Shown: positions 44,958 through 64,000, counted from the stretch's first letter. The stretch is DNA of 64,000 nucleotides from an uncultured Actinomycetes bacterium (GCA_963767005.1 CAVYCN010000002.1:544001-608000); one strand, 5' to 3'. Numbers and translations are program-made. Notes: generated by a model not told the origin, from the letters alone.

Positions 44958-45085
44958 CGTCTCCCCTCCCCTGAGGCTGTCCTCGAGTCTGGCGCCCATC
45001 ATACCAAACGAAGCCGCTCATCTTCGAACCGGTGCGTGCGTGGCTATCCTCATACCCGACCGCGGCGGCTTGCCGCGGCCGTTGA

Positions 45086-45280: not shown

Positions 45281-45407
45281 AGCCATCCAGGCTCACAGCA
45301 CCCTCCTCTCTCCGCCTCTGCCCGCGTCGACCCCTCGTCGCCGGCATCAGACCTGACGGTCGGGGCTGCCGGCGTCCCGATCGTCAGTGCGTCGCGGAGG
45401 CGGTGTG

Positions 45408-49761: not shown

Positions 49762-50280
49762 TCAAGCCGAGATCGTCTTCTCACCCGGGCGCCAGTCGAC
49801 CGGGCACAGCTCCCCGGTCTGCAGCGCCTGCAGCACCCGCAGCGTCTCATCGGTATTGCGCCCCACGTTGTTGTCGTGGACGACCATGTACCGCAGCAGC
49901 CCCTCGGGGTCGACGATGAAGGTGCCACGCAGGGTGTGTCCCTCGTCGGGTAGCAGCACGCCGTAGCTGCGCGCCACCTCGCGCGTGAGGTCGGACAGCA
50001 GGGGGAAGCCGAGCTCGCCGAGGTCGTGCTCACACCAGGCGAGGTGACTGTACTTGCTGTCGACGCTCGCCCCGAAGACCTTGGCTCCCAGGGCCTCGAA
50101 CTCGCCGCAACGCTGCGCGAAGCCGCGGATCTCCGTCGGGCACACGAACGTGAAGTCGAGCGGATAGAAGAACAGCACGACCCAGTTGCCGCGCTGGTGG
50201 GCGAGCGTCACGGTGACGAAGTCGCCGTCGAGCACGCCGTCGAGGGTGAAGTCGGGGGCTGGCTGGCCTACCTGGATCAC
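49762..50280 (-). CDS. ahpC: 2-Cys peroxiredoxin (AhpC/TSA)
   Basis: FFYPLDFTFVCPTEI, SVDS.YSH.AW and GELCPVDW. GTG start after AAGGAG. Confidence 0.93.
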   Translation of the reverse strand: MIQVGQPAPDFTLDGVLDGDFVTVTLAHQRGNWVVLFFYPLDFTFVCPTEIRGFAQRCGEFEALGAKVFGASVDSKYSHLAWCEHDLGELGFPLLSDLTREVARSYGVLLPDEGHTLRGTFIVDPEGLLRYMVVHDNNVGRNTDETLRVLQALQTGELCPVDWRPGEKTISA

Positions 50281-50404
50281 GAGCGCTCCTTCGTCGTCCC
50301 GGCCGCCGCGACGCAGGGGTTCGGCGGATCGGCGAAGACAGATACCCCGTGCCGTGCCCTTCCAAGCCGGGCCGGCGGGTCGGCGGGCAGCCCGCCGGCC
50401 GGCC

Positions 50405-50752
50405 CTAGGCGGCGCGCGGCGCCGCGCGGCAGTCCGTGACCGCGCAGCGCTCGTCGGTGTACCGGCGGTAGCGCTCGAGGTCGTCGCGCAGGCGCTCGCG
50501 CACCCGCCGCGCCTCGTCGGGCGCGCCGGTCGGCTCGTAGGCCAGCTCGACGGTGACCGCGACCTGGCCATCGGCCTCCCGCGCGAACGTCACCGTGCCG
50601 CGCTCCACCGGGCTCTCGTCGACCCACCAGCGCGAGTCGGCGACGCTGCGCGGCCGGCCCGCGCTCCTCGACGCGAACACGTATTCGTCCCACGCGCGAC
50701 CCGCAAAACGCGCCGGTACGTCGGTGCGGATCGACTCGCTGATCGTCTCCAT
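50405..50752 (-). CDS. Small hypothetical protein, SRPBCC/cyclase-like
   Basis: GAAGGAG RBS; METISESI.TDVP...GTVTF...VTVELAYEP...DLERYRRY resembles short SRPBCC proteins. Confidence 0.55.
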   Translation of the reverse strand: METISESIRTDVPARFAGRAWDEYVFASRSAGRPRSVADSRWWVDESPVERGTVTFAREADGQVAVTVELAYEPTGAPDEARRVRERLRDDLERYRRYTDERCAVTDCRAAPRAA

Positions 50753-50888
50753 CGCCACTCCTTCTCGCATGCGAATCCGCTGCCACTGTCCCTGTCCGAG
50801 CCGACCTCCAAACCAGCGCGAGGGCCACCCGGCACCCGCCGGCGCAATCGCCGGTTAGTGTCGGGCCGCGCGCCGGTACTTTCACCTC

Positions 50889-51716
50889 ATGGCAAGCGAG
50901 CCGACCGGTCTCACCGCGACGAGCGACATGCTCGACGAGGCCCGTGCCCTCATCGACGAGGCGCGGGCGGGCGGCGTGACGCTGCGCCTCGTCGGCGGCC
51001 TGGCCGTGCGCGCCCACTGCGCCGCGCCGGTGCTGTGCGAGCGGCCCTGCCGCGACATCGACCTCGTCGCGCCGCGCCGCGCGGGGCGCGCGGTCGGCGC
51101 GCTGCTCGACGGCCTCGGCTGGACCGAGAACCGCCAAGTGGCGATGGCGGCGGCGGGCCGCAAGCGCCAGTTCTTCCGCGGCTGCCGCCACGCCACCTCC
51201 GCCGGCAACGCCCATGTCGACGACCGCGTCGACCTGTACCTCGACGCCTTTCGGCTGCACCACACGATCGACCTGCGCGAGCGCCTCGACCTCGATCCCT
51301 ACACCGTGTCGCTGTCCGACGTGCTGCTCGTCAAGCTGCAGCGCACCCAGGCCGAGCCCGACGACGTGCGCGACATGCTCGGTGTGCTCGAGAGCGCCGG
51401 CGCGCTGGGTGAAGACGACGGCCCCGGGATCCTCAACCTCGACTACCTGACCCGGCTCTGCGCGGCCGATTGGGGCCTCTGCCACGACGTGGAGCGCAAC
51501 CTCGCGCGCTGCCGCGACGCCCTCGCCACGCCCGCGCGGCGAGACCCTGGCGTCCAGCGTGCGCCGGCCCGTCTCGACGCCATCGCAGCGGCCCTGGCGG
51601 GAGCGCCGCGGAGCTGGCGCTGGCGGCTGCGCGCCGCCCTGGGCGAACGGCTCGCCTGGCACGAGCCGGTCGACGACGTCGAGGGCGTGACCTTCGCCCC
51701 GGGCGAGCGGCCCTGA
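50889..51716 (+). CDS. Putative nucleotidyltransferase-fold protein
   Basis: LVGGLAVRAH...R...DIDLV...VDLY...KLQ...DVRD, a GG-x-A...DxD...K...D pattern of the pol-beta/AbiEii-like NTase fold. Confidence 0.6.
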   Translation: MASEPTGLTATSDMLDEARALIDEARAGGVTLRLVGGLAVRAHCAAPVLCERPCRDIDLVAPRRAGRAVGALLDGLGWTENRQVAMAAAGRKRQFFRGCRHATSAGNAHVDDRVDLYLDAFRLHHTIDLRERLDLDPYTVSLSDVLLVKLQRTQAEPDDVRDMLGVLESAGALGEDDGPGILNLDYLTRLCAADWGLCHDVERNLARCRDALATPARRDPGVQRAPARLDAIAAALAGAPRSWRWRLRAALGERLAWHEPVDDVEGVTFAPGERP

Positions 51717-51858
51717 CGATCGCTCGACCGCGCGCGTCGGCTCTGGTCCCGGAACCGACGCCGCCTTCGCCCTTGTTGCGACGCGGCCACGCTGCGACGA
51801 TACTGTGGCAACGTCTTCGGCCCGTCCGCCGTCGCACGAGTGATCGGGGGGATCGCCG

Positions 51859-54800
51859 GTGTCGACCGTGCGCACGCCACGCCGCACCACGCCGCGCCGA
51901 GGCGTCCGGCCCCCGGGCACGCCGGGCGGGCGCCCCGCGCTGCGGCACGCCGCGCGCCAGCCCCAGCGGCTCATGCGCAGCGTCCTCGGCCCGGTCGACA
52001 TCGCCGCCTCGACCATGGCCAACATCGCCCCGGCCATGAGCTTCTACTTCGGCTTCGGCTTCCTCGCGCTCACGGCCGGCATCGCCTCGCCGCTCACGAT
52101 CGTCGCCGCCGGCGTCGCCATCGCCTTCCTGGCCAACACGCTGGCGCAGTTCTCGCGGGCCCATCCGTCGACCGGCTCGTTCATCACCTTCATCGGCAAG
52201 GCGTTCGGCCCGACGAGCGCGATCGCGACCGCCGTCATCCTCATCACCGGCTACGTGATCGCCATCATCTCGGTGCTCGTCATGTCGGGCGGTTTCACGG
52301 CCATCTTCCTGCACCGTTACGTGCCCGGCGTACCGGCCTCGTCGTGGCCCTGGTTCATGGTCGTCTTCGTGAGCGCGGCCGCCTACCTCATGGTGCGCGG
52401 CGTGCACATCTCGACTCGCTGGGCCGGGATCTTCTTCGCTTTCGAGATCGCGGTACTCGTCGTGGTCACGTTCAGCGCCCTGATCCACCACGCCGACCAC
52501 CTGACGCTCCATCCGTTCGACCCGCGCTACCTGTCGAACGGCTTCAAGGGCCTGGGCCTCGGGTTCCCGCTGGCCGTGTACCTGTTCATCGGCTGGGAGA
52601 ACTCGGCCGCCCTCGCCGAGGAGACCGAGAACCCGCGCCGCAACGTGCCCCGCGCCCTCTTCGCCAGCGTCGGCCTGATGATGCTGAGCTACGTCCTGTT
52701 CGCCTACGCCACCGTCGAGGGCTTCGGCGAGAACGTCGCCGCCCTGACCGCCGCGCCGATCCCCTTCATCACGCTGGCCGACAGCGTGCTCGGCGTGCTC
52801 GCCTTCCTCGCCTACCTCGCCGGCGTGACGTCGACCCTCGCCTGTCTGATCGCCGCGGTGAACTCGCAGTCGCGCCTGCTGTTCCACGCCGGCCGCGAGG
52901 GTCTGCTGCCGTCGTGGGTCGGCCGCGTGTACGCGCGCCGGCGCACGCCGGTGAACGCCCTCATGACCTTCACCGGTATCGGCCTCGTGCTCGTCTTCGC
53001 CTGGTCGTTCGGGCAGCACATCGACCCGGTGACGCTGTTCGCCGAGGCCTCGACGCTCGGCACCATCCTCGTGGTCGTCGTCTATCTCGTCGCCAACCTG
53101 GCACTGCCGGTCTTCTACCGCAAGCACCACCCCGACCAGTGGTCGCCCCTGCCCCACCTCGTCATCCCGCTCGTCGGCGCCGGCCTCATCGCCCTGCCGA
53201 TCTACGAACTCGTCAAGCCGGGGCAGGCCTCACCCTACGACCTGTTCCCGTACGTGGCGCTCGCGGTGATCGTGGTCGCCGTGGCCTACGCGGTGGCGCT
53301 GAACGCGCGCGACAAGACCTTGGCCGACCGCGTCGGCTCGCTCGTCGCCGACGACGCCGCCGACGGCAAGTTCGCCGGCTTCCTCGACGATGACGAGGAG
53401 CAGGTCCGCCACCTGCATCGCATCGCCCGCTGCCTGAACGAGGACCGCGACACCAAGCCGGCCCTGCAGAACGCCTTGCGCGTCGTCGCCGAGACGCTGG
53501 GCGCCGCCTCGGCGGCCGTGTTCGTCGTGCGTCCGGGCGACGTCGCCGAAGCCCTCACCGTCTGCGGCGACGCGCGCCGCAGCTTCCCCTACGCGCCGCT
53601 CGATCTCCGCCATCCGCTGCTCGCCCGGCTCGTGCGGCGTCCGGGCCTGCTCGAGGTCGTCGACGTCGACGGCCTGCCAGCGCCCCTGCTCGCCGTCGTC
53701 GCTCCCGACGCCGCCCGGGTCACCCTCGCGCCCCTGCCGGCCGGCCCCGGGGTCGCCGCACTCCTGCTGCTCAGCCGGCGGTCCGACGCTCCGCTCAGCG
53801 CGCGCAAGGCGGCCTTCGTCGCCGTCGTCTGCGAGACCCTGGGACCGGCCATCACGAGCCGCGCGCTGGCCGAAGAGTCGCATCACACGGCGGCCGTGCT
53901 CGAGACCGCCTACGCGGTCTCGCGGGCGATCACCCAGAGCCTCGACCTCGAGCACACCTACCGCGAGATCGCACGAAGCGCGGCGCGCGTCGCACGCGGC
54001 TCCCACTGCCTGTTGTTCGAACTCGAGCGCGGCACGGGCGACCATCTCGCCGTCGCCTGCTCCGATCCGGAGAGCGAGGACCTGCTGGGCACGCGCGTGC
54101 GGCTGCTCGAGAGCGCCGACCGGCCGCGCCAGCGAGCCGGCGGTGGTTTTGTCGTCCGGCCGGCGGCCACCCGCGGCGGCGGCCAGACCAGCAAGTTCTC
54201 GCTGGGCGGCCACCTCGGCGCCCGCCTGGCCGGCATGTTCAACGCCGACTCCTCGGTGCTCGTGCCCCTGTTCGCGCAGCAGGTGCCCGTCGGCTCGCTG
54301 CTCGTGTACGCGGCCGGCCGGCGGCGCCGCTTCTCGCCGCTCGAGGTGGCCGAGCTCGGCAGCGTGGGCGAGCAGGCCGCGATCGCCATCCACAACGCCC
54401 AGCTCTACCGCGACCTCACCGATAGCCGGGCGAGCGTCGAAGCGCTGCTCGGGCGTCTCACGCGGATCCGCGACCAGGAGCGCCAGGGCCTCGCCCGCGT
54501 GGTCCACGACGACATCGTGCAGTCCATCGTGGGCGCGGTCTACCGCCTCGACCTTCTGCGCGACGGCGTGGCCGGCGATCGGGTGGCCGAGTTCGACGAG
54601 GCGGTCGCCGGTCTGCGCCAGAGCATCGACGACGCCCGCCGGGTGATCTGGGAGCTGCGCCCGCCGGCGATCGAGGGCCTCGGCCTGCCGGCGGCGCTGC
54701 GCTCGCTGGCGGAGCGCAGCCACGACGGCGGCGCCCGCGTCGCGGTGTCGATCGAGGACGTCGTCGGCCTCTCCGACGCGGTCACGACCGGCCTCTACAA

Positions 54801-55095
54801 GATCGCCCGCGAGGCCCTCACCAACGCCCTGCACCACGCCGGCGCGCGCCGCATCGGCATCTCGCTCGCCGGCGCGCCCGCGGGCGAGCACGGCGGCGCG
54901 CACCTCGTCGTCGAGGACGACGGTGTAGGCTTCGTGGCCGACGCGAGCCGCGACGGCGGCCACTACGGGACGGTGATGATGGAGGAGCAGGCGACGCTCA
55001 TCGGTGCGACCCTGTCGATCGAATCACAGCCCGGTCGCGGCACGCGCGTCCGGGTCGTCGTGCCGGCGCCCCGCGCCGCGGCGGCGGCGAGATGA
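51859..55095 (+). CDS. APC family amino-acid permease fused to GAF domains and a HisKA_3/HATPase_c histidine kinase
   Basis: One 1078-aa ORF: roughly 12-TM APC domain (to about 53355), two GAF-like regions, H-box ERQGLARVVHDDIVQ, N-box EALTNALHHA, G1 EDDGVGF and GTRV. Confidence 0.9.
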   Translation: MSTVRTPRRTTPRRGVRPPGTPGGRPALRHAARQPQRLMRSVLGPVDIAASTMANIAPAMSFYFGFGFLALTAGIASPLTIVAAGVAIAFLANTLAQFSRAHPSTGSFITFIGKAFGPTSAIATAVILITGYVIAIISVLVMSGGFTAIFLHRYVPGVPASSWPWFMVVFVSAAAYLMVRGVHISTRWAGIFFAFEIAVLVVVTFSALIHHADHLTLHPFDPRYLSNGFKGLGLGFPLAVYLFIGWENSAALAEETENPRRNVPRALFASVGLMMLSYVLFAYATVEGFGENVAALTAAPIPFITLADSVLGVLAFLAYLAGVTSTLACLIAAVNSQSRLLFHAGREGLLPSWVGRVYARRRTPVNALMTFTGIGLVLVFAWSFGQHIDPVTLFAEASTLGTILVVVVYLVANLALPVFYRKHHPDQWSPLPHLVIPLVGAGLIALPIYELVKPGQASPYDLFPYVALAVIVVAVAYAVALNARDKTLADRVGSLVADDAADGKFAGFLDDDEEQVRHLHRIARCLNEDRDTKPALQNALRVVAETLGAASAAVFVVRPGDVAEALTVCGDARRSFPYAPLDLRHPLLARLVRRPGLLEVVDVDGLPAPLLAVVAPDAARVTLAPLPAGPGVAALLLLSRRSDAPLSARKAAFVAVVCETLGPAITSRALAEESHHTAAVLETAYAVSRAITQSLDLEHTYREIARSAARVARGSHCLLFELERGTGDHLAVACSDPESEDLLGTRVRLLESADRPRQRAGGGFVVRPAATRGGGQTSKFSLGGHLGARLAGMFNADSSVLVPLFAQQVPVGSLLVYAAGRRRRFSPLEVAELGSVGEQAAIAIHNAQLYRDLTDSRASVEALLGRLTRIRDQERQGLARVVHDDIVQSIVGAVYRLDLLRDGVAGDRVAEFDEAVAGLRQSIDDARRVIWELRPPAIEGLGLPAALRSLAERSHDGGARVAVSIEDVVGLSDAVTTGLYKIAREALTNALHHAGARRIGISLAGAPAGEHGGAHLVVEDDGVGFVADASRDGGHYGTVMMEEQATLIGATLSIESQPGRGTRVRVVVPAPRAAAAAR

Positions 55096-55733
55096 CCGCG
55101 TCGGCCGACAGGACACGCGTCCTCATCGTCGACGACCACGCCGTCGTGCGCGAGGGTCTCGAGCGCATCATGGCCAAGTGCGCCGATCTCGAGGTGGTCG
55201 GCTCGGCCGCGAGCGGCGAGGAGGCGCTCGACCTGGCCGCCTCCCTCGAGCCCGACCTCGTGCTGCTCGATCTCTCGCTGCCGGGCATGCACGGCCTCGA
55301 CGTGCTGGGCGTCCTGCAGACGCTGCCGCGCCCGCCCCGGGTGATCGTGCTCACCGTGCACGACGACGACGACATCGTGCTCGGCGCCGTGCGTGGCGGC
55401 GCCCAGGGCTACGTCCTCAAGAACGCCACGCGCGACGAGCTCATCGCCGCCGTGCGCCACGTCGCGACCGGCGGCCAGTCTTTCGACGAGGTCGTCGTGC
55501 GCGCCCTGCTGCGCGGCGACCAGCGCGAGGTGCTGTGCAGCCTGCTCACCGCGCGCGAGCTCGACGTCCTGCGCCTCGTGGCCGGCGGCCAGACCAACAA
55601 GGAGATCGCCGCCGCCCTGTTCATCAGCGCCGACACCGTCAAGGGGCACCTCGAGACGATCTACCGCAAGCTCGGCGTGTCCGACCGGGCGCACGCCGTG
55701 GCGGTCGCCATCCGCAACGGCCTCGTTGCCTGA
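55092..55733 (+). CDS. NarL/LuxR family response regulator
   Basis: ATGA overlap with the kinase. Receiver domain (IVDDH, LLDLSLP, YVLK) and LuxR HTH (LTARELDVL...NKEIA...TVKGH). Confidence 0.96.
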   Translation: MTASADRTRVLIVDDHAVVREGLERIMAKCADLEVVGSAASGEEALDLAASLEPDLVLLDLSLPGMHGLDVLGVLQTLPRPPRVIVLTVHDDDDIVLGAVRGGAQGYVLKNATRDELIAAVRHVATGGQSFDEVVVRALLRGDQREVLCSLLTARELDVLRLVAGGQTNKEIAAALFISADTVKGHLETIYRKLGVSDRAHAVAVAIRNGLVA

Positions 55734-55890
55734 CGGTCATCCCCCGAACGGCCCCCCGCCTCGCGGGCCGAACGCCGGCGCGATCCCACCCGATCGGCGC
55801 CGGCGGAGCGCCGTTTGTGGCGTTTCGGCGGCGGCCCGCGTCGCCTAGGCTCGGCGCGGCGGTATCCGTAGTCGATGATCGGGGGGATCT

Positions 55891-57495
55891 ATGGCTGAAG
55901 AGATCGCGTTTGCCCGCAAGGCGAGCGGCCTGGTGCGCGGACTGTCCTTCTGGGACGTGACCGGCATCGGCCTCGCGTTCATCACGCCCATCTACGCCAT
56001 CTGGTACATCATCGAGGTGGGCCTCGTCCTGTACCCGTCGGCCAACCTGCTGATCGCGATCCTTATCTCAGTGCTGACGATCGGCTGGGCGAGCCCCATC
56101 GTCTGGGGCGTCCTGGGCGGCAGCATGCCGCGCAGCGGCGGCGAGTACATCTACAACTCGCGCATCATCAACCCGGCCGTCGCGCTGGGCGCGAGCTTCA
56201 CCGCGATCGTCGCCCAGTTCTACTGGAACCTCTTCAACTCGAGCCTGATCGCGGTGCCCTCGCTGGCCATCCTCGGCCAGTACCTCGGCTGGACGGGGCT
56301 GTCGAACTTCGCCACGAGCAAGCACGGCGGCGTCATCCTCTCGTGTCTGGGTATCGGCATCGCCTTCCTCATCCTGGCCTTCGGCATGAAGACCTTCCGG
56401 CACCTGTCGAAGGTCGTGATCGTCATCATGCTGGGCGGCGTCGTGATCCTTGACCTCGCCCTGACCCTGGCCAGCAAGGCGAGCTTCATCAAGCACTGGG
56501 ACGCGCAGGCCGCCAAGTACCACTCGCTGCCCTACCACCAGTTCGTCGCCGCGGCCCACACGGCCGGCGCCGCCACGCCGACGACCTGGACCTGGGGCGA
56601 CACCTTCGGCGCCACGGCCGGCGTCTTCATGATCTTCATCTGGGCGTTCGGCATCGCCTACGTAGGCGGCGAGGTCAAGCGTCCCGACAAGACCGTCATG
56701 CGCGCCCAGTGGGCGGCCGTGGGCATGCCGGTGCTGCTCTGCATCTGGGCCGTGCTGGCGATCGGTCACATCATGCCGTACGACTTCCTGCGGGCCGCGG
56801 CCTTCCAGGACTTCTCGGCGGCCACCAAGGGCTACAACCTGCCCTACTCGACGAGCTTCATGTCGATCGCCTTCGTCGCCTCGGGCGCGAACTGGTTCAT
56901 CGGCCTCGTGGCCGGCGTCACCTTCGGAGTGACCGCGCTCTGGCTCGTCGTCGTCAACCTGCTGATGTGCCAGCGCGCGATGTTCGCCTGGGGCATGGAC
57001 CGCATGGGGCCGACCTGGTTCACGTCGATCAACACGCGCACCGCGTCGCCGATCGGCATGCTCGGCTTCGTGGCGGCCATCTCGGCGTTCCTGTCGGTAG
57101 CCTACTGGTACCTGTTCCCGAGCGTCCTGTCGGGTCTGTTCGCGTCGGGCATGCAGCTCGTGTCGGTGTTCGGCGTGACCGCTATCTCGGCGATCATCTT
57201 CGCCTACCGCAAGAAGGCGGCTCACATCTGGAACTCGTCGCCCTACCGCAACTGGAAGGTGGCCGGCATCCCGGTGCTGACGATCGCCGGAGTCGTCTAC
57301 CTCTGCTACATCGTCGCGCTGCTGTACTTCGCGTTCTTCGACGCAAAGACGAAGGACGTGACGGGCAAGAAGGTCTGGCTCATGGTCGTGGCCTGGGCCG
57401 CGGGCATCGCCTGGTACTACTTCTGGAAGTACCGCAGCGCCCAGAAGGGCGTCGACGTGGCGACCATGACCTACGGCGAGCTGCCGCCTGAGTGA
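55891..57495 (+). CDS. APC family amino-acid/amine permease (second, divergent type)
   Basis: FARKASGLVR, MPRSGGEYIYNSR, YVGGEVKRP and RAMFAWGMDR; many TM helices. Confidence 0.88.
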   Translation: MAEEIAFARKASGLVRGLSFWDVTGIGLAFITPIYAIWYIIEVGLVLYPSANLLIAILISVLTIGWASPIVWGVLGGSMPRSGGEYIYNSRIINPAVALGASFTAIVAQFYWNLFNSSLIAVPSLAILGQYLGWTGLSNFATSKHGGVILSCLGIGIAFLILAFGMKTFRHLSKVVIVIMLGGVVILDLALTLASKASFIKHWDAQAAKYHSLPYHQFVAAAHTAGAATPTTWTWGDTFGATAGVFMIFIWAFGIAYVGGEVKRPDKTVMRAQWAAVGMPVLLCIWAVLAIGHIMPYDFLRAAAFQDFSAATKGYNLPYSTSFMSIAFVASGANWFIGLVAGVTFGVTALWLVVVNLLMCQRAMFAWGMDRMGPTWFTSINTRTASPIGMLGFVAAISAFLSVAYWYLFPSVLSGLFASGMQLVSVFGVTAISAIIFAYRKKAAHIWNSSPYRNWKVAGIPVLTIAGVVYLCYIVALLYFAFFDAKTKDVTGKKVWLMVVAWAAGIAWYYFWKYRSAQKGVDVATMTYGELPPE

Positions 57496-57526
57496 TCGGA
57501 CGGCGTCACGCCGCCTGCAGCGAACC

Positions 57527-57569
57527 GGGGCGGCGGGGGCGGGCTGGCGCCCGCCCCCGCCGCCCCTTT
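57527..57569 (+). terminator. Intrinsic terminator-like hairpin
   Basis: 18-bp stem GGGGCGGCGGGGGCGGGC-TGGC-GCCCGCCCCCGCCGCCCC followed by TTT. Confidence 0.75.
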
Positions 57570-57618
57570 AGATGGTACGGTTCAGCGAATCAGCACGGGA
57601 CGACGAGTGGAGGCGGCC

Positions 57619-58110
57619 ATGACGCAGGACGCGCAGATGCGCAGGAGCGACAAGGAGATCACCGACCGTGACGTGCTCGAGCGCCTGCTCGACGACGCCC
57701 AGGTGCTGCACCTCGGGCTGGTCGATGAGGGCCGCCCCTACGTCGTGCCGCTCAACTTCGGCCGCGAGGGCGACGTCCTCTACGTGCACTGCGCCGCCGA
57801 GGGCCGCAAGCTCCGCTGCCTGACCGCGCAGCCGGCCGTCTGTGTCGAGGTCGAGCGCCTCGACCGCGTCACCAAGGGCAGTTCGGCCTGCGGTGAGTGG
57901 ACCAGCCACTACGAGTCGGCGATCGGCTTCGGCACGGCCCGCGTGCTCGCCGACGAGGCCGACCGTGAGCGCGGCCTGCAGGCGATCATGGCCAAGTACT
58001 CGGGGCGGCGCGACTGGACCTTCAAGCCCGAGACGCTGGCCAAGACGATCGTCGTACGCATCGACCTCGAGCGGCTCACCGGCAAGCGCTCGCCGGCGCA
58101 GTCCGCTTAG
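57619..58110 (+). CDS. Pyridoxamine 5'-phosphate oxidase family (NimA-like) flavin-binding protein
   Basis: MRRSDKEI, PYVVPLNF, YVHCA.EGRK, YESAIGFG and TGKR. Confidence 0.88.
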   Translation: MTQDAQMRRSDKEITDRDVLERLLDDAQVLHLGLVDEGRPYVVPLNFGREGDVLYVHCAAEGRKLRCLTAQPAVCVEVERLDRVTKGSSACGEWTSHYESAIGFGTARVLADEADRERGLQAIMAKYSGRRDWTFKPETLAKTIVVRIDLERLTGKRSPAQSA

Positions 58111-58130
58111 GCCGAGCCCGGCGCCCTCGT

Positions 58131-59426
58131 TTAGACTCGCTCGGCGCGCTCCGGCGCGGCCGCTCCGCCGAGGAGCTCCAGCTCCATGCCCTGCGCCGCG
58201 AGCTCGTCCTGGATGCGACCGGCCGCGAGGTCGCGTGGCGCGCACCCGTCGCGCACCGCGAGCGCCGCGGCGACGCCGGCCGCCTGCCCGGTGGCGAAGC
58301 ACACCGGGATCAGGCGGAGCTGCACCATGGCGTCGGGAGCCGCCGACAGGCAGCGACCGGCGAACAGCAGTCCGTCGACCGACTCGGGCACCAGTGAGCG
58401 GTACGGGATGCGCATGGAGCGCCCGGCGTAGGGCTTGGCCACCGTGTCGGGGAACACGGTCGCGAAGACCTCCTTGAGGCCCGGTGTGGCGAGGCCGGTG
58501 ATGCGCCGCGTGCCGCGCACGCCGACCTGCGCCGCCGTGCACTCCAGGCGGGCGCGCTCGAAGCCCGCCAGGCGCGTGCGCAGAAACGCGACCAGCCGCA
58601 TGGTGTGCTGGCGGGTCACGATCTCGGCCCTCGTCAGGTCGTCGGGGTCGATGCCGTTCACGCCGAACAGGCTGCCCGACCACAGGTTGATCTGACCCGG
58701 GTAACAGAGCTCGGCGGCGAAGACGCCCGGCGCGAACGCGCGCGAGTGGACCTCGAGGTCGAACTCGAGCTCGCCGGCGGCCACGGCCGCTTCGACCAGA
58801 CCGCGCAGGTTACCCCAGCTGCCGAGCTGCCCGAGGGCGCGAGCGGTGTCGATGCCGACGACCGTCGACATGAGGGTCACCGGCAGTGGCCGCGAGTCGA
58901 GCTCGTAGGCGGCGCCGGCGGCGGCCGCGAGGTCGCCGTCGCCGGTCGTGTCGATCACGAGGCGGGCGCGGATCGCCGCCCGCCCCGCCTTGGTCTCGAT
59001 GATGACGCCGCTCACGCGACCGTCGTCGGTGAGGCTACCGACCACGCCGGTGTGCAGCAGGAGCCGGGCACCGGAGTCGAGCAGCAGGGTGAGCAGCTCG
59101 AACTTGAGGATCTCGGGGTCGACCGCGATCAGGCCGTCGACCGCGGGGTCGTCGCCCAGGTTGGCGCACTCCTGGTAGGTGCGCGCCTCCTCGAGCCGCC
59201 CACGTACCTCGCCGTTGATGCCGTTGTCGAGCGGCGGCACGGTGATCACGAGGCCGCCGGTGGCGAGGCCGCCGAGATAGCCGTACCGCTCCAGCAGGAT
59301 GACGCGCGCGCCCAGGCGAGCGGCGCAGACGGCCGCCGCCACCCCCGCGACGCCGCCGCCGCAGACCACGACGTCGGTCTCGTCGTACACCGGGATCGAA
59401 CGTCTCTCCTCGATCACCACATCCAT
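58131..59426 (-). CDS. FAD-dependent oxidoreductase (FAD_oxidored family)
   Basis: DVVVCGGGVAG..AA..AAR.G...ER...LGG..TGG, DTTGDGD, IPYRSLVP, AGRCLS and TGQAAG. Confidence 0.9.
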   Translation of the reverse strand: MDVVIEERRSIPVYDETDVVVCGGGVAGVAAAVCAARLGARVILLERYGYLGGLATGGLVITVPPLDNGINGEVRGRLEEARTYQECANLGDDPAVDGLIAVDPEILKFELLTLLLDSGARLLLHTGVVGSLTDDGRVSGVIIETKAGRAAIRARLVIDTTGDGDLAAAAGAAYELDSRPLPVTLMSTVVGIDTARALGQLGSWGNLRGLVEAAVAAGELEFDLEVHSRAFAPGVFAAELCYPGQINLWSGSLFGVNGIDPDDLTRAEIVTRQHTMRLVAFLRTRLAGFERARLECTAAQVGVRGTRRITGLATPGLKEVFATVFPDTVAKPYAGRSMRIPYRSLVPESVDGLLFAGRCLSAAPDAMVQLRLIPVCFATGQAAGVAAALAVRDGCAPRDLAAGRIQDELAAQGMELELLGGAAAPERAERV

Positions 59427-59482
59427 GATCTACTCGGCCCCCTTGCACCGCGGCTCGCGCACCACGCTCGAGGTCCGCCGCG

Positions 59483-60916
59483 TCACTCCTGTCCTCCCGC
59501 GTCCTTCACTGCCTGCTTCAGCGAAGCGTAGCCGGGGAGTGTACGATAAAACTCGTCGCGGGTGTAGCAGCCCGACACGGTGCCGAAGCCCGGCGCGATG
59601 TCGCACCAGCTACAGGCGTTGCAGAGGCTCTTGCGCCGCAGCGGGCGCCCCGCGACGACGTCGGCCGCGATGTCGGGGTAGCTCAGCGCCATGCGCCCGA
59701 TGCCGATCGTGTCGGCCCAGCCGCGCTCGACGACCGCCTGACCCACGTTGGGCAGCCACTGCTGCAGGTACGAATAGCCGCTGCCGATGTGCACGAGCTC
59801 GGGATGCGCCCGCTTGAGCTCGGCCACGATCTTCACGAGTCGCACGACGCCGACGAGCGGGTCTTCGGGCGGCCGGTGCGGCGCGACCGGCAGCGACATG
59901 TAGGGCTCCATCACGTGCGAGTTGTACTCGGCGCCGCCCGAGGCCGACACCAGACTGATGTCGAGCTCGGCCAGCAGGTCGAGGAACGCCAGGGGCTCGC
60001 GCAGGTCGCAGCCCAGGCCGCTGCCGTCGCCGCCGAAGGCGTAGCGGTAAGGCTCCCGGCCCGGAGGCGCAGGCTGCGTGCGGTCGCCGTCGCCGTCGAT
60101 GAAGGGCACGAAGTCGACGGCGCTGAAGCGCACGGCGATGCCGAGACCGGGGGCCTCGGCACGGATGCCGGCCACGATCTCGCGCAGGAAGCGCGTGCGG
60201 TTCTCGAAGCTGCCGCCGTAGGGGCCGGGCCGCTCGACGGCGCTCAGGAACTCATGGCCAAGGTAGCCGTGACAGTGCTTGACGTCGACGAAGTCGAAGC
60301 CCGCCTGCCGCGACAGCACGCCGGCGTGGACGAAGTCGGCGACCACGCGCTCGATCTCGGCGTCGCTCATGACGGCGTCGTCGCCCTGGGCGTCGTAGCG
60401 CTCGTCGAGCAGCGGGTGGTGGTACAGCACGCGCGGCTCGCAGCGGTCCATGTCGTGCGGATGCGCGACGCGCCCCGAGTGGGTGAGCTGCACGCCGACC
60501 ATGAGGTCGTCGGTCCTGCCGAAGTGGCGCTCGTGGGTGGCGACGAGCAGCCGCCGCAGGCCGGCGATGTCGTCGAGGTTCTCGTCGACCATGACGAGCT
60601 GGCTCGGGCTGCCCCTGCCCTCGGGACAGACGGCGATCGCCTCGGCCCCGAAGATGAGCTTCGCGCCGCTCAGGCCCCAGCGCTCCCAGCGCCGCCGGGT
60701 GAGGTCGGTCGGGCGGCCGTCGACCGTACAGTCCCAACCCTCCATGGGCAGGATCGCAAAGCGGTTGCCCACCGTGCGCCCGAACACCTCCAGCGGACGG
60801 CCGAGCGGCGAGTCGGGGCCGGACCGCACCTCGTCGTCGACCGGCAGCTCCAGGCCGAGCGACTCGACGTACGCGCGCAGCGACTCCACGTCTTCAAAAC
60901 GACCGATGTTGCGCAT
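59483..60916 (-). CDS. NADH:flavin oxidoreductase (Old Yellow Enzyme-like)
   Basis: NRFAILPMEGWD, QLTHSGR, AGFDFVDVKHCHGYLGHEFLS, YGGSFENRTRF and C-terminal CNACSWC. ATG 60916 follows GAAGGAGG. Confidence 0.9.
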   Translation of the reverse strand: MRNIGRFEDVESLRAYVESLGLELPVDDEVRSGPDSPLGRPLEVFGRTVGNRFAILPMEGWDCTVDGRPTDLTRRRWERWGLSGAKLIFGAEAIAVCPEGRGSPSQLVMVDENLDDIAGLRRLLVATHERHFGRTDDLMVGVQLTHSGRVAHPHDMDRCEPRVLYHHPLLDERYDAQGDDAVMSDAEIERVVADFVHAGVLSRQAGFDFVDVKHCHGYLGHEFLSAVERPGPYGGSFENRTRFLREIVAGIRAEAPGLGIAVRFSAVDFVPFIDGDGDRTQPAPPGREPYRYAFGGDGSGLGCDLREPLAFLDLLAELDISLVSASGGAEYNSHVMEPYMSLPVAPHRPPEDPLVGVVRLVKIVAELKRAHPELVHIGSGYSYLQQWLPNVGQAVVERGWADTIGIGRMALSYPDIAADVVAGRPLRRKSLCNACSWCDIAPGFGTVSGCYTRDEFYRTLPGYASLKQAVKDAGGQE

Positions 60917-61041
60917 GAGCCTCTGCTTCCTCCTTCGGGCCACGTCACTGCCCTCGTGCGGGCGACGCCGGCCGCCGCGCCGGGCCCGGCGCGGGCCCGG
61001 TTCGACCCCGCCGGTCGGGACCGGCCGTCCGTCGTGCTCGC

Positions 61042-61072
61042 GGCGGGGGTGGAGCGTCGCTCCACCCCCGCC
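61042..61072. terminator. GC hairpin downstream of the stand-alone APC permease
   Basis: GGCGGGGGTGGAGCG-T-CGCTCCACCCCCGCC inverted repeat. Confidence 0.5.
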
Positions 61073-61103
61073 ACCCGCGGTTGTCGTTGGCGATCCCCGG
61101 CGA

Positions 61104-62600
61104 CTACTCGTCAGCGACGAGGGCACCGACCCTGTCGCCGAGGGTCTTGTCGCGGCTGTTGATGATCGCGGCGTAGATCAGCGCCACGACGATCATCGCC
61201 AGGGCCACGTAGGGGAACGCGTTGTACGGCGAAGGCTGGCCGGGCTTCACCAGGTTGTAGAGCGGATACACGATGACCGCCGTGCCGATGACCGGCAGGA
61301 TGAGATCCCTGACGACGCTGAACTGGCTGCGGTAGTGCTTGAGGTAGAAGATCGGCAGCGACAGGTTGGCCACCGCGTACGCGATGATCACGAGGATCGT
61401 ACCAAGCGTCGAGGGTTCGGCGAAGAGCACGATCGGCGTGATGCCCTGGATCAGCGCCCAGCCGAAGCAGCCGACCAGGCCGATGATCATGAAGACGACG
61501 AGGGCGTTGACCGGCGTGCCGCGCTTCGCGGACACCTTGCCAAGCCACTTCGGCAGCAGACCCTCGCGCCCCGAGTTGAACATGAGCCGGGCCTGCGAGT
61601 TGACCGCGGCGATCAGACAGCCGACGGTCGAGGTCACGCCGGCGATGTAGGCGAGGAAGGCGAGGAAGGCAAGCTCCTTCTGGGCCACGCCGATGAACGG
61701 GATCGAGTTGGCGGTCAGCTTGCCGACGTTCTCGCCGTAGGCCTCGACGGTGGCGTAGGAGAAGAGCACGAAGCTGGCCAGCATGAGCGCCACGCTGGCA
61801 AACAGAGCACGCGGGATGTTCTTGCGCGGCTGGTCGGTCTCTTCGGCCATGGGGCCGGCCGCCTCCCAGCCGATGAACATGTAGACGGCGAGCGGGAAGC
61901 CCAGGCCCAGCCCCTTGAAGCCGCTCAGCAGGTAGTGCGGGTTGAAGGGGTGCAACGTGAGATGGCCGCCGTTCTGGATGAGCGCGATGATGCTGACGAG
62001 CATCAGGATGATGAACTCGAAGGCGAAGAAGGCGCCCGCCCAGCGGGTCGAGAGGTGCACGCCCCTGATCATGAGGAAGGCGGCCAGACCGACGAAGGCG
62101 CAGACGAAGATCGGCCACGTCCACGACGGGAACGAGTGGAAGTAGTTCTGCAGGAACATGGTCATGAAACCGCCGGAGATGGCCATGATCGAGAAGATGT
62201 TCACAAGATAGCCGCCGACCAGCACGATGGCCGTGGTGATCGCCAGGACCGGCCCAAGAGCCATGCCTATGAACGTGATGAACGAGCCGGTCGACGGGTG
62301 GGCCTGCATATAGCGTGAGAGCGTGTTGGCCAGGAACGCGACCGCAATGCCGGCCACGATGATGGTGAGCGGCGAAGCGACACCCGACGTCGCCGCAAGG
62401 AAGCCAAAGCCGAAGTAGAAGCTCATCGCCGGGGCGATGTCGGCCATGGTCGAAGCCGCGACCTCGAACGGCCCGAGCACGCCGCGCTTGAGGCGGTTGC
62501 TCTCGGTGGCCGGGGTGGCCGCGGCTTCGGTCGCCGCGGGCGGCGGTGCCGTCACCGTGCTGACGCCACTGCGGGCGCCCTCTGCGTCGTTGGACTCCAT
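61104..62600 (-). CDS. APC family amino-acid/amine permease, paralog of the kinase-fused permease domain
   Basis: About 12 TM helices; IAPAMSFYFGFGFLA, FIGWE..GPMAEET and GREGLLP; GAGGGAGGGG RBS. Confidence 0.93.
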   Translation of the reverse strand: MESNDAEGARSGVSTVTAPPPAATEAAATPATESNRLKRGVLGPFEVAASTMADIAPAMSFYFGFGFLAATSGVASPLTIIVAGIAVAFLANTLSRYMQAHPSTGSFITFIGMALGPVLAITTAIVLVGGYLVNIFSIMAISGGFMTMFLQNYFHSFPSWTWPIFVCAFVGLAAFLMIRGVHLSTRWAGAFFAFEFIILMLVSIIALIQNGGHLTLHPFNPHYLLSGFKGLGLGFPLAVYMFIGWEAAGPMAEETDQPRKNIPRALFASVALMLASFVLFSYATVEAYGENVGKLTANSIPFIGVAQKELAFLAFLAYIAGVTSTVGCLIAAVNSQARLMFNSGREGLLPKWLGKVSAKRGTPVNALVVFMIIGLVGCFGWALIQGITPIVLFAEPSTLGTILVIIAYAVANLSLPIFYLKHYRSQFSVVRDLILPVIGTAVIVYPLYNLVKPGQPSPYNAFPYVALAMIVVALIYAAIINSRDKTLGDRVGALVADE

Positions 62601-62703
62601 GTCCCCCTCCCTCTCTTTCAGGTACGCGGTCAGCGGTACGTGGAACGGACGGCGGGACTCCCCCAGACCGGCCGGCTGTCGGGACGTGCCAGGCGTGCAC
62701 CCG

Positions 62704-64000
62704 TCATCGCGGCGGCTCGATCGCCGCCACGAGCGGCTTCAGGATGTCGACGACGCGGTCGGCCTCGTCGACGGTCGTCGTGCAGGGCGGCGCGATCACG
62801 ATGCGGTTCGAGCCCATCTGCCGCAGGTGCAGGCCCAGATGCCGGGCCTCGTCGAGCAGCGGCATGATCGGCCCCACCGGCGGATTGAACATCGCCTTCG
62901 TCTCTTTGTCGGCGACGATCTCCATGGCGAGCATGAGGCCGAGGCCGCTGTGCGTGCCGACGCACGGCATCGGCATGAACTCGCGTTCGATGCGCTCGAC
63001 GATGTGGGCGCCGACCCGGGTCGCGTTCTCGGCGATGTGCTCGTTCACGTAGACGTCGACCGCCGCGATCGCGGCGGCGCAGCCGGCCGGCGAGCCGCTG
63101 AAGGTGTACTGGTGCATGAGCGGGATGCCCTCGAGGCCGGCCCAGATCCTGTCGTTGAAGGCGACGGCGCCCATCGGGACGTAGCCGCCGGTGATGCCCT
63201 TCGACATCGCGATCACGTCGGGCACCACGTCCCAGTGGTTGATGCAGAACATCGTGCCGGTGCGGCAGAAGCCGCACATCACCTCATCGGCGATCATGGC
63301 GACCTCGTACCTGCTGCAGATCTCGCGGATCAGCGGCCAGTAGGTGTCGGGCGGCACGAGGAAGCCCGACGCGCCGAGCTCGGGCTCGGCGATGAAGGCG
63401 GCCACGTTCTCGGGCCCCTCAGCCTCGATCACCGTCTCCAGGAAGCGCGCGCAGCGCGTGTCGCAGACCGGATACTCGAGACCGAACGGACAGCGGTAGC
63501 AGTAGTAGGCCGGGATCTTCAGGTAGCCCGGCGCCTCGGGCCCGTAGCCGGCCTGCATGGCCGGGATACCGGTCAGGTTCATGGGCCCGTTGCCGGTGCC
63601 GTGGTAGCTCATGTAGAGGCTCACGACCTTGCGCTTGGTGGGCTGGCCGATCGCCGTGAAGTAGCGCCGCACGAGGCGGATCGCGGCGTCGGTCGACTCG
63701 CCGCCGCCCGAGGTGAACCAGAAGTGGTCGAGGTCGCCGGGCGTGACCGTCGCGAGCTTGCGGGCGCATTCGACCATCGGCGTGCTGGAGTGGCCGTAGT
63801 ACTGCCCGACGTGCTGCAGCTTGTTCAGCTGCGCCGTGACCGCGTCGATGATCTCGCGCCGGCCGTGGCCCAGGTTGGCGCTCACCATCTGCGACGAGGC
63901 GTCGAGGTACTCCTTGCCCTCGGTGTCGCGCAGCACGATGCCTTCGGCGGAGTCGTAGATCACGCCGAGCGTCTCGCCGAGCGGGATCTGGGCGTGCAGG
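62704..64000 (-). CDS. Class III PLP-dependent aminotransferase (omega-amine/BioA-like); N-terminus extends beyond the window end
   Basis: EYLDA...NLGHG, TSGGGES, SYHG, AFIAEP, IADEVMCGFCRTG and SKGITGGYVPMG with the PLP lysine. Confidence 0.94.
   Translation of the reverse strand, partial: LHAQIPLGETLGVIYDSAEGIVLRDTEGKEYLDASSQMVSANLGHGRREIIDAVTAQLNKLQHVGQYYGHSSTPMVECARKLATVTPGDLDHFWFTSGGGESTDAAIRLVRRYFTAIGQPTKRKVVSLYMSYHGTGNGPMNLTGIPAMQAGYGPEAPGYLKIPAYYCYRCPFGLEYPVCDTRCARFLETVIEAEGPENVAAFIAEPELGASGFLVPPDTYWPLIREICSRYEVAMIADEVMCGFCRTGTMFCINHWDVVPDVIAMSKGITGGYVPMGAVAFNDRIWAGLEGIPLMHQYTFSGSPAGCAAAIAAVDVYVNEHIAENATRVGAHIVERIEREFMPMPCVGTHSGLGLMLAMEIVADKETKAMFNPPVGPIMPLLDEARHLGLHLRQMGSNRIVIAPPCTTTVDEADRVVDILKPLVAAIEPPR

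Follow-up and report, generated by a model that had tools for sequence, protein, structure and literature searches.

An APC-family permease fused to a tandem-GAF histidine kinase in uncultured Thermoleophilia, a candidate transceptor

Can a complete amino acid permease serve as the signal input of a histidine kinase when both are parts of one polypeptide? This question is raised by a gene (P0001; Table 1) in a 64,000-nucleotide stretch of DNA from an uncultured Actinomycetes bacterium (GCA_963767005.1, CAVYCN010000002.1:544001-608000), which we call the window and in which positions are counted from the first nucleotide. The predicted protein carries an APC-family permease domain, two GAF domains and a HisKA_3 kinase core, and its gene overlaps that of a NarL-type response regulator (P0002). 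We find that the fusion is real and conserved, and is not an assembly artefact. In the reading that we prefer, for which the case is evenly poised, the permease domain is the signal input, its state is relayed directly to the kinase, and the regulator activates the gene of a nearby permease of 534 amino acids (aa). We infer the role of the permease as sensor, its direct coupling to the kinase, the class of its ligand and the target of the regulator.

A conserved permease-kinase fusion

The initial annotation had described one uninterrupted 1078-aa open reading frame (ORF) with an intact APC permease and a NarX/DesK-type kinase core, and both the reading frame and Pfam matches bear this out. 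The guanine-plus-cytosine (GC) content of third codon positions is 0.88 to 0.99 in the same single frame in every 300-nucleotide interval of 51850-54850, within a window whose GC content exceeds 70%. Because this high third-position GC content stays in one frame, there is no frame change near the permease/kinase junction (~53355). The junction is crossed, with 0 differences over 151 nucleotides each, by low-depth assembled contigs (53238-53388, 53268-53418 and 53248-53398) that come from three public runs, each of a different study; one run may be the source sample. A stop or frameshift at this point, named in the annotation as a ground for doubt, is found neither in these contigs nor in the ORFs of seven of the nine other genomes that carry the gene, each of which is single and uninterrupted (eight of 10 loci when the window is counted).

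Pfam recognizes the permease as AA_permease at residues 52-427 (96.9 bits; cut-off 24.6) and as AA_permease_2 at residues 64-471 (96.1 bits; cut-off 27), and sequences in the PDB match the same domain to SLC7 and GkApcT transporters (E 1e-15 to 1e-12). The SSF/SLC5 and Amt/Rh families are absent among the Pfam matches of the fused protein. Behind the permease, GAF is matched at residues 696-844 (34.5 bits, above the curated cut-off), HisKA_3 at residues 874-936 (35.4 bits; cut-off 24) and HATPase_c at residues 977-1071 (42.5 bits; cut-off 26.4). Two GAF-like regions had been proposed: GAF-B is the one found by Pfam, and GAF-A (~513-693), which has no Pfam match in the window protein, is supported by AlphaFold models and Foldseek. 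At a lenient threshold, relatives have two stretches that match Pfam GAF.

Among 25 fused proteins, all 25 have H883, D884 and D885, with H883 inside a VHDD sequence, and N989, D1020, D1021, G1022 and G1024 in the N and G1 boxes of the catalytic domain. With its catalytic residues intact, the kinase is predicted to be competent. The strings ARVVHDD, EALTNALHHA and DDGVGF, quoted in the initial annotation, all occur in the translation, and the overlap of the kinase stop with the regulator start as ATGA can be read directly. The regulator matches Response_reg (94.9 bits) and GerE (71.1 bits). The same 25 of 25 proteins are invariant at A54, N55, A57 and P58 in helix 1 (A54-N55-x-A57-P58), at E196 in helix 5, at G245-x-E247 in helix 6, and at L252-A-E-E-T256. 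G493 in the linker between helix 12 and GAF-A is also invariant in all 25.

The full-length AlphaFold model is of moderate quality, with a mean predicted local distance difference test score (pLDDT) of 67.9 and a predicted template modelling score (pTM) of 0.42. It places 12 membrane helices at residues 45-484 (pLDDT 50-85), and this part resembles BasC, AdiC, ApcT and GkApcT, with template modelling (TM) scores normalized to the target of 0.72-0.78. GAF-A is an alpha/beta domain in two AlphaFold models (pLDDT 80-94). A long helix joins it to GAF-B, and a second long helix continues into the helix of His883; long helices of the DHp region are modelled at 827-903 and 906-932. For a model of residues 506-1078 (mean pLDDT 81), the best Foldseek matches are all tandem-GAF proteins, namely bacteriophytochrome kinases, the phosphodiesterases PDE2/5/6 and the cyclase CyaB2 (8upk at 4e-17, 9eut, 9cxi, 3ibj and 1ykd). 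The catalytic domain resembles that of VraS (4gt8) with a target TM-score of 0.89.

The gene is present in 10 of 401 genomes of the same class, the window genome included, and all copies belong to one family. Seven of the other carriers are of the same genus (G226, G231, G104, G343, G161, G146 and G116), and two belong to two other genera (G296 and G156). A collection of 5.8 billion proteins contains 24 clusters at 90% identity with the full architecture, which are 54-94% identical, sum to 112 member sequences, and all come from uncultured Thermoleophilia; among the relatives of the permease domain classed as longer in this collection, 24 of 24 share the full fused architecture. When one genome for each of 185,579 species was scanned with an alignment query, 11 near-full-length loci were found, all in metagenome-assembled genomes titled Thermoleophilia, Actinomycetes or Actinomycetota bacterium. 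The architecture is restricted to a small group of uncultured soil and peat actinobacteria (Thermoleophilia). The initial annotation had allowed for homologs that are always encoded as two genes; instead, the single-ORF fusion is kept in related genomes and database clusters.

Relatives of the permease domain number 6853 among 1.84 billion representatives, and five of the best 150 exceed the length of a standalone permease. Four are fused forms or their fragments, and the fifth is a 693-aa protein (P0039) with Pfam permease domains only; the remainder of these 150 are permease-sized or shorter fragments. Truncated forms in databases (P0025 and P0028-P0031) look like partial calls, and one of them, P0031, starts inside helix 10 and nests within the fused clade. 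One database source labels such proteins "amino acid transporter/signal transduction histidine kinase", and another uses "amino acid permease [Thermoleophilia bacterium]". In a full-text search of a library that lacks most subscription journals, no study turned up of an APC-GAF-HisKA_3 kinase or, more broadly, of a histidine kinase with a fused APC permease. The earlier suggestion that such an architecture had not been characterized thus agrees with the literature found, although its novelty was somewhat overstated given that one database already labels these proteins.

Constraint on the permease domain and its origins

We compared ratios of nonsynonymous to synonymous substitution rates (dN/dS) by the Nei-Gojobori method in six genome pairs. 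The permease domain has values of 0.063-0.208 and the cytoplasmic half 0.207-0.418, with the permease below the cytoplasmic half in all six pairs. Within the latter, GAF-B has 0.14-0.35 and the kinase core 0.16-0.34; the regulator has 0.119-0.220. Two standalone permeases give 0.096-0.198 and 0.099-0.450, so the fused domain is equally low or lower. No other part of the protein is as constrained as the permease domain, which is under strong purifying selection.

The closest paralog of the fused domain is a standalone 498-aa permease encoded ~6 kilobases (kb) away in an aminotransferase-containing catabolic cluster, and it is 62% identical to kinase residues 22-503. Between the group of fused domains to which that of the window belongs and the group of these standalone sisters, 24 substitutions are fixed. 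At 17 of these 24 positions, the residue of the fused domain is the one that at least four of six other standalone permeases share; this is true of its sister at 1. It is the standalone sister, not the sensor, that is derived in helices 1 and 6, where N55 is replaced by D and N248-S249-A250 by A-A-G. By these comparisons, the fused permease domain is not degenerate and has kept transporter-typical residues.

Aligned by phmmer, E196 corresponds to the lysine in the AIKVAV sequence of GkApcT, which we take to be the titratable helix-5 lysine of ApcT and GkApcT; the title of one PDB entry among the fold matches names an ApcT K158A mutant. The helix-1 G-T-G of GkApcT aligns to P-A-M in the fused domain. 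Because standalone relatives share both E196 and P-A-M, these residues mark the subfamily and not the sensor. A lysine at the Na2 site is described in the CbrA paper (PMC13488458). Constraint and subfamily-typical residues together are compatible with a permease domain that transports.

The origin of the domain was addressed with a tree of 107 permease sequences (quick search, LG+G4). The fused permease domains that include that of the window form one group (clade 1; support 96), with the 498-aa standalone permeases as its sister group (joint support 100). The stem branch of clade 1 measures 0.088, and that of the standalone sister 0.31. The permeases of a second set of fused forms (clade 2; P0033-P0036, ~1190 aa) are separated from these by the deepest split of the tree and lie next to another standalone permease (support 99). 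When the tree is constrained so that all fused permease domains group together, the log-likelihood falls by 447.6 units (approximately unbiased (AU) test, p 4e-64); the tested group was named after inspection of the tree, and the effect is very large.

The cytoplasmic half has relatives of another kind. Soluble GAF-GAF-HisKA_3 kinases of 660-724 aa (P0040-P0047 and a paralog on contig C11 of the window genome), from Thermoleophilia and other Actinomycetota, are 36-46% identical to it over its whole length and colinear from GAF-A to the end. They are also colinear with residues 529-1187 of P0035 in clade 2 (46% identity). The soluble kinases carry an extra N-terminal domain of ~110-130 aa that clade 2 retains behind its permease and clade 1 lacks; even with E values up to 10 allowed, Pfam does not match this domain, which is PAS-like by eye only. 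In a tree of the cytoplasmic half, all fused proteins lie on one side and the soluble kinases on the other, with a support of 84/93 that is not decisive. P0033, which has a clade-2-type permease, has a cytoplasmic half that is sister to clade 1 (100/100).

By these arrangements, clade 2 is a permease joined to a whole soluble kinase, and in clade 1 a different permease stands in place of the former N-terminal domain. This history is most simply read either as a single fusion whose input was later replaced, or as fusion on two separate occasions. Because the fused permeases have separate origins in the tree and the AU test, the kinase lineage acquired an APC input twice under either history. 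The clade-1 permease arose by duplication of the neighbouring transporter lineage. A broader interpretation, which we offer tentatively as possible rather than probable, is that APC permeases are swappable plug-in sensor modules. The series would start with a soluble kinase, continue with a kinase that had gained a permease in front, and end with one in which a copy of a neighbouring transporter took the place of both this permease and the former N-terminal domain. The fused permease would itself transport, and its transport cycle would gate the tandem-GAF HisKA_3 kinase. If so, this would be a bacterial APC-family transceptor with a mechanism distinct from the STAC-mediated one of the CbrA type.

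Signal input, candidate target and competing readings

Upstream of the kinase gene are promoter-like elements in which TTGC and CGATACTG are invariant across six aligned orthologous regions, in keeping with a putative promoter function. A conserved operator-like block, CGATCnCACCCG(T/A)TCG ... CGTTTGTGGCG, is located instead before the 534-aa permease gene. All aligned genomes (8 of 8) have it; it lies 22-70 nucleotides upstream of a -10-like box (CCTAGGCT) and as a composite motif has 1 match in the 3.44-Mb genome, which is this site itself. A promoter of this form looks activator-dependent. We infer that the adjacent regulator binds the candidate block, and the 534-aa permease gene is likely to be the target of the regulator. 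A shared site before the aminotransferase cluster or the kinase gene was considered and dropped, as the motif found only itself. With its own conserved boxes and without the operator-like block, the kinase gene fits a constitutively made sensor.

Other signals were sought in the surrounding DNA. No consensus sigma-70 promoters or intrinsic terminators are found in 51500-58200, as is expected at this GC content, and Rfam has no match in 50000-64000 at E up to 0.1. In six other genomes, though not in the window or in G226, a conserved leader of 135-170 nucleotides separates the -10-like box from the start of the 534-aa permease gene. The leaders of these six orthologous loci have no Rfam match at gathering scores, and their consensus fold is weak (-9.1 kcal/mol, with a covariation term of -0.19). 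With so little covariation, we do not claim an RNA element here.

In the mechanism that we favour, an amine-like nutrient, which is a guessed ligand, would occupy the permease or drive its transport cycle. The state of the permease would then be relayed through the short, conserved acidic linker to the helical spine of GAF-A and GAF-B, and the state of this spine would govern autophosphorylation of the HisKA_3 kinase at His883. Once phosphorylated, the regulator would bind the operator-like block (55781-55822) and activate the 534-aa permease gene. In its architecture and constraint, the fused protein is compatible with the transceptor class. The initial annotation had proposed direct control of the kinase through the APC domain, by substrate binding or by transport. 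Constraint, transporter-like residues and an input acquired twice fit this proposal, and the same evidence would fit a tethered importer that feeds a GAF sensor equally well.

Several observations weigh against the favoured mechanism. The orthologue is broken in two of 10 copies, into three frames in G146 (L032 3329-6578) and two in G116 (L017 2-3029); either sequencing error or real decay may account for these interruptions, which look the same in the present assemblies. GAF-A, which is next to the permease, is the fastest-evolving part of the protein (dN/dS 0.23-0.68). No STAC-like adaptor is matched by Pfam at E up to 0.01, and the 22-residue linker enters GAF-A directly. The full-length model reveals neither rigid coupling nor a docking surface, as residues 492-511 of the linker score below 50 in pLDDT and the pTM of the whole protein is 0.42. 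The cytoplasmic part can presumably sense alone, because its GAF-GAF-kinase core also occurs in soluble paralogs, one of which is encoded in the same genome. The scan of the genome found no operator-like block upstream of the kinase gene or the aminotransferase cluster, a weak absence given that the motif is possibly over-specified. Furthermore, the fused domain and its 498-aa sister may differ in ligand, because helices 1 and 6 differ, and what would link the kinase to the aminotransferase cluster is paralogy and proximity. In G156, this cluster is on another contig, away from the kinase operon. All hosts are uncultured.

The main alternative is a serious rival that we hold somewhat unlikely. 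It is that the fused permease is a constitutive low-level transporter, that a GAF domain senses an inducer or metabolite inside the cell, and that no conformational signal passes from permease to kinase, so that the fusion only co-locates entry and sensor. Soluble GAF-GAF-HisKA_3 paralogs without a permease are common, and the one in the window genome lies beside its own regulator and permease gene. The large ESM Atlas clusters nearest the query are also all GAF-GAF-HisKA_3 kinases (score 0.86), which we treat as a lead and not as evidence. Transporter-typical residues, transporter-like constraint, the predicted flexibility of the linker, the good conservation of GAF-B and promoter-like boxes without a regulator-type block would all suit such an importer. 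However, the clade-1 permease replaces the N-terminal domain of soluble kinases and is not an addition to a complete sensor, and GAF-A, which might do the sensing, is weakly constrained. A covalent link is unneeded for feeding a sensor, yet it was kept or remade across two permease origins, and the linker sequence is well conserved within clade 1.

The permease might also bind its ligand after having lost net transport, as have the receptors Ssy1 of yeast and UhpC of E. coli, with uptake left to the 534-aa and 498-aa permeases. Two standalone permeases are indeed encoded nearby, one of them the likely target, and the fused domain duplicates a transporter lineage, which is the usual origin of such receptors. 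Nevertheless, we regard this as improbable: the fused branch shows no acceleration, its stem being shorter than that of the standalone sister, and at the level of sequence there is no loss of family-typical residues, the common state being kept at most of the fixed differences. Least probable is that the permease is a mere membrane anchor or scaffold, for example one that places the kinase beside other transporters, or that the fusion stems from an error of assembly or gene calling or from a gene in decay. Two copies are indeed interrupted, several database entries are truncated and high-GC DNA yields long spurious frames. However, the artefact is already largely refuted by eight intact copies from independent assemblies, the 24 clusters, the single frame and the contigs of three runs over the junction, and a dN/dS of 0.06-0.21 with invariant helix-1 and helix-6 motifs is far beyond the needs of an anchor.

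Neighbouring genes and related systems

The features of the locus are collected in Table 1. The regulator adjoins the kinase in 8 of 8 orthologous loci compared by tblastn. Behind it comes the 534-aa permease gene in 7 of 8; the exception is G296, which has Suf-like genes there. A PNPOx-like gene lies between the 534-aa permease gene and the minus-strand catabolic cluster, which adjoins the kinase operon in the four same-genus loci long enough to show it. Genes for a short-chain dehydrogenase and an aldehyde dehydrogenase of the cluster are just past the end of the window.

Table 1. Positions of the fused gene, its domains and surrounding features (window positions unless a locus is named)
Feature	Position	Strand	Description
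Promoter-like elements of kinase operon	51776..51805	+	TTGCGA 51776-51781, 17 nucleotides, GATACT 51799-51804
Ribosome-binding run GGGGGG and GTG start, kinase gene	51846..51861	+	G-run then (A/G)TGTCG start in 6/6 aligned genomes
Fused sensor kinase gene (P0001)	51859..55095	+	1078 aa, GTG start, single frame without internal stop
APC-family permease domain	51964..53328	+	Residues ~36-490; 12 predicted transmembrane helices, 45-484
Acidic linker, helix 12 to GAF-A	53329..53394	+	Residues 491-512
GAF-A and connecting helix	53395..53937	+	Residues 513-693; structure prediction
GAF-B	53938..54336	+	Residues 694-826; Pfam GAF
DHp / HisKA_3 helices	54337..54654	+	Residues 827-932; phospho-acceptor His883 = 54505-54507
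Catalytic ATP-binding domain	54685..55071	+	Residues 943-1071; Pfam HATPase_c
NarL/LuxR-type response regulator (P0002)	55092..55733	+	213 aa; start overlaps kinase stop as ATGA
Operator-like block, CGATCnCACCCG(T/A)TCG ... CGTTTGTGGCG	55781..55822	+	Conserved; upstream of 534-aa permease gene
-10-like CCTAGGCT of 534-aa permease gene	55844..55851	+	No conserved -35
Standalone distant APC permease	55891..57495	+	534 aa; Pfam AA_permease_2, 1e-12; candidate target gene
Catabolic cluster around 498-aa permease	58131..64000	-	Convergent with kinase operon
FAD oxidoreductase (PF12831)	58131-59426	-	Catabolic cluster
Old yellow enzyme (OYE)-like flavoenzyme	59483-61126	-	547 aa; catabolic cluster, directly downstream of 498-aa permease
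Standalone APC permease	61104..62600	-	498 aa; closest paralog of fused permease domain
Class-III (omega) aminotransferase	62704-about 64100	-	Catabolic cluster
Leader before 534-aa permease gene, other genomes	L030 10085-10248, L032 7383-7550, L033 9991-10156, L031 9981-10139, L034 9953-10088, L035 9163-9307 (-)

The ligand could be an amine or omega-amino compound, a lead to which we give somewhat less than an even chance. It comes from the aminotransferase and aldehyde dehydrogenase genes around the paralogous permease, and from P0045 and P0038, in each of which copper amine oxidase domains (AGAO-like N2, N3 and catalytic) come after a permease that shares 57-58% identity with the fused domain. 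These two may be run-on gene calls in high-GC contigs or a true fusion; we take them as a hint from neighbourhood and do not count them as fusions. The missing glycine motif of helix 1, whose role here is putative, is a further lead.

Within the minus-strand cluster, the OYE-like flavoenzyme and the FAD oxidoreductase resemble a split two-domain flavoprotein, whose substrate may point to the pathway compound. A gene for a LacI-family regulator (L028 3492-4559 (-), corresponding to about 66492-67559 past the window end) is directly upstream of the aldehyde dehydrogenase gene on the same strand, and adjoins genes for a PfkB kinase and a KDPG aldolase. This regulator, and not the two-component system, might control part of the cluster.

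A conserved module of SpoIIE, anti-sigma kinase and STAS genes upstream of the kinase operon is unrelated to the fusion. This region also contains a c-di-GMP-I-GGC riboswitch aptamer (RF03167, 45195-45275 (+), 69.9 bits; gathering score 59), located ~110 nucleotides upstream of a subtilase S8 gene (45387-47018), which the genes of the SpoIIE phosphatase, anti-sigma-type kinase and STAS protein follow. The arrangement is kept in two other genomes (L030 1421-1501 and L033 716-796). Further upstream, a radical-SAM/SPASM protein adjoins an 836-aa protein (43599-45002 (-) and 40897-43407 (-), respectively) that has N-acetylmuramoyl-L-alanine amidase, FlgD-Ig, Big and CHU_C domains.

The soluble kinase on contig C11 is 39% identical to the cytoplasmic half of the fused protein, and belongs to a paralogous system (L003, ~C11:61143-65088) with a class-IV aminotransferase, a regulator (55% identical) and a permease gene. 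This system is a natural comparator without a fused permease. The sister clade, with its different permease and extra domain, the 62%-identical standalone transporter a few kilobases away and the single, well-defined candidate target promoter are natural controls of the same sort. Because of these comparators, it can be directly tested whether the transporter signals or merely imports an inducer. The architecture also suggests a route to new biosensors in which transporter specificity is coupled to transcriptional output.

The soluble GAF-GAF-HisKA_3 kinases are also among the nearest known systems. They use the same type of regulator and often have a permease gene downstream, and they differ from the fused protein in having no membrane domain. 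DosS (DevS) and DosT of Mycobacterium are soluble GAF-GAF-HisKA_3-HATPase_c kinases with a NarL-type regulator, and so have the same cytoplasmic domain order and regulator family. In a phmmer search of PDB sequences, the sole match to these kinases was weak and confined to the DosT catalytic domain (3zxq, E 0.0078), with no GAF chain matched, and we do not file the fused kinase with DosS and DosT on the strength of that match. Bacteriophytochrome kinases, PDE2/5/6 and the cyanobacterial cyclase CyaB2 share with it two GAF-type domains and long helices that run on into the effector, whereas sequence identity is 9-15% and the input of the fused protein is a membrane transporter.

In the LysP-CadC system, an APC permease acts as a co-sensor, and the two are separate proteins; a LysP structure (9eyd) is among the fold matches of the permease model. 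Co-sensing by a transporter and a kinase that are separate proteins is also described for DctA-DcuS and BceAB-BceS in PMC11109136. In these systems, as in the mechanism proposed here, the state of a transporter informs a signalling protein, but the partners are non-covalent pairs, whereas the APC permease and its kinase are one polypeptide.

Covalent fusions are found with ammonium transporters. Ks-Amt5 is an Amt transporter fused to a histidine kinase, and Sd-Amt1 is an Amt-HAMP-diguanylate cyclase, according to PMC5764959 and PMC11152129. They are similar to the fused protein in that a transporter fold is reused as the membrane input of a signalling enzyme. They differ in belonging to the Amt/Rh superfamily and in having another ligand and another class of kinase, and the fused protein has no Amt domain.

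Among the closest parallels are CbrA, CrbS (MxtR) and RpuS, the SLC5/STAC sensor kinases of Pseudomonas, Vibrio and Sinorhizobium, as described in PMC13488458, PMC9100948, PMC7096432 and PMC5715377. Transporter-histidine kinase fusions are regarded as rare, and a structural paper of 2026 calls CbrA a rare transceptor; the coupling of transport to signalling is still open even for CbrA (PMC13488458). Like these kinases, the fused protein has a complete LeuT-fold secondary transporter joined N-terminally to a histidine kinase (PMC13488458). The partner regulators of SLC5/STAC kinases control genes for nutrient uptake or catabolism, in the case of RpuS/R a nearby symporter gene (PMC13488458, PMC9100948, PMC7096432, PMC5715377), as the regulator studied here likely does. 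The differences extend over the whole protein. A 12-helix APC-family (AA_permease) domain is present here and a 13-helix SLC5 domain there; tandem GAF domains stand where STAC and PAS domains are in the other kinases, with neither STAC nor PAS found in the fused protein; and the kinase is of the HisKA_3 class (NarX/DesK type), with a NarL-type regulator. Its hosts are Thermoleophilia, and those of CbrA, CrbS and RpuS are Proteobacteria.

The APC fusion would thus work like the SLC5/STAC kinases and Ks-Amt5, yet it belongs to neither family, for it has no SLC5, STAC or Amt domain matched by Pfam. Transporters fused to kinases are already known from CbrA and others, and what is new here is the APC-GAF-HisKA_3 form. 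By joining an APC permease through a short linker to tandem GAF domains and a HisKA_3 kinase, this form may represent a second, unrelated solution to the coupling of a transporter to a kinase.

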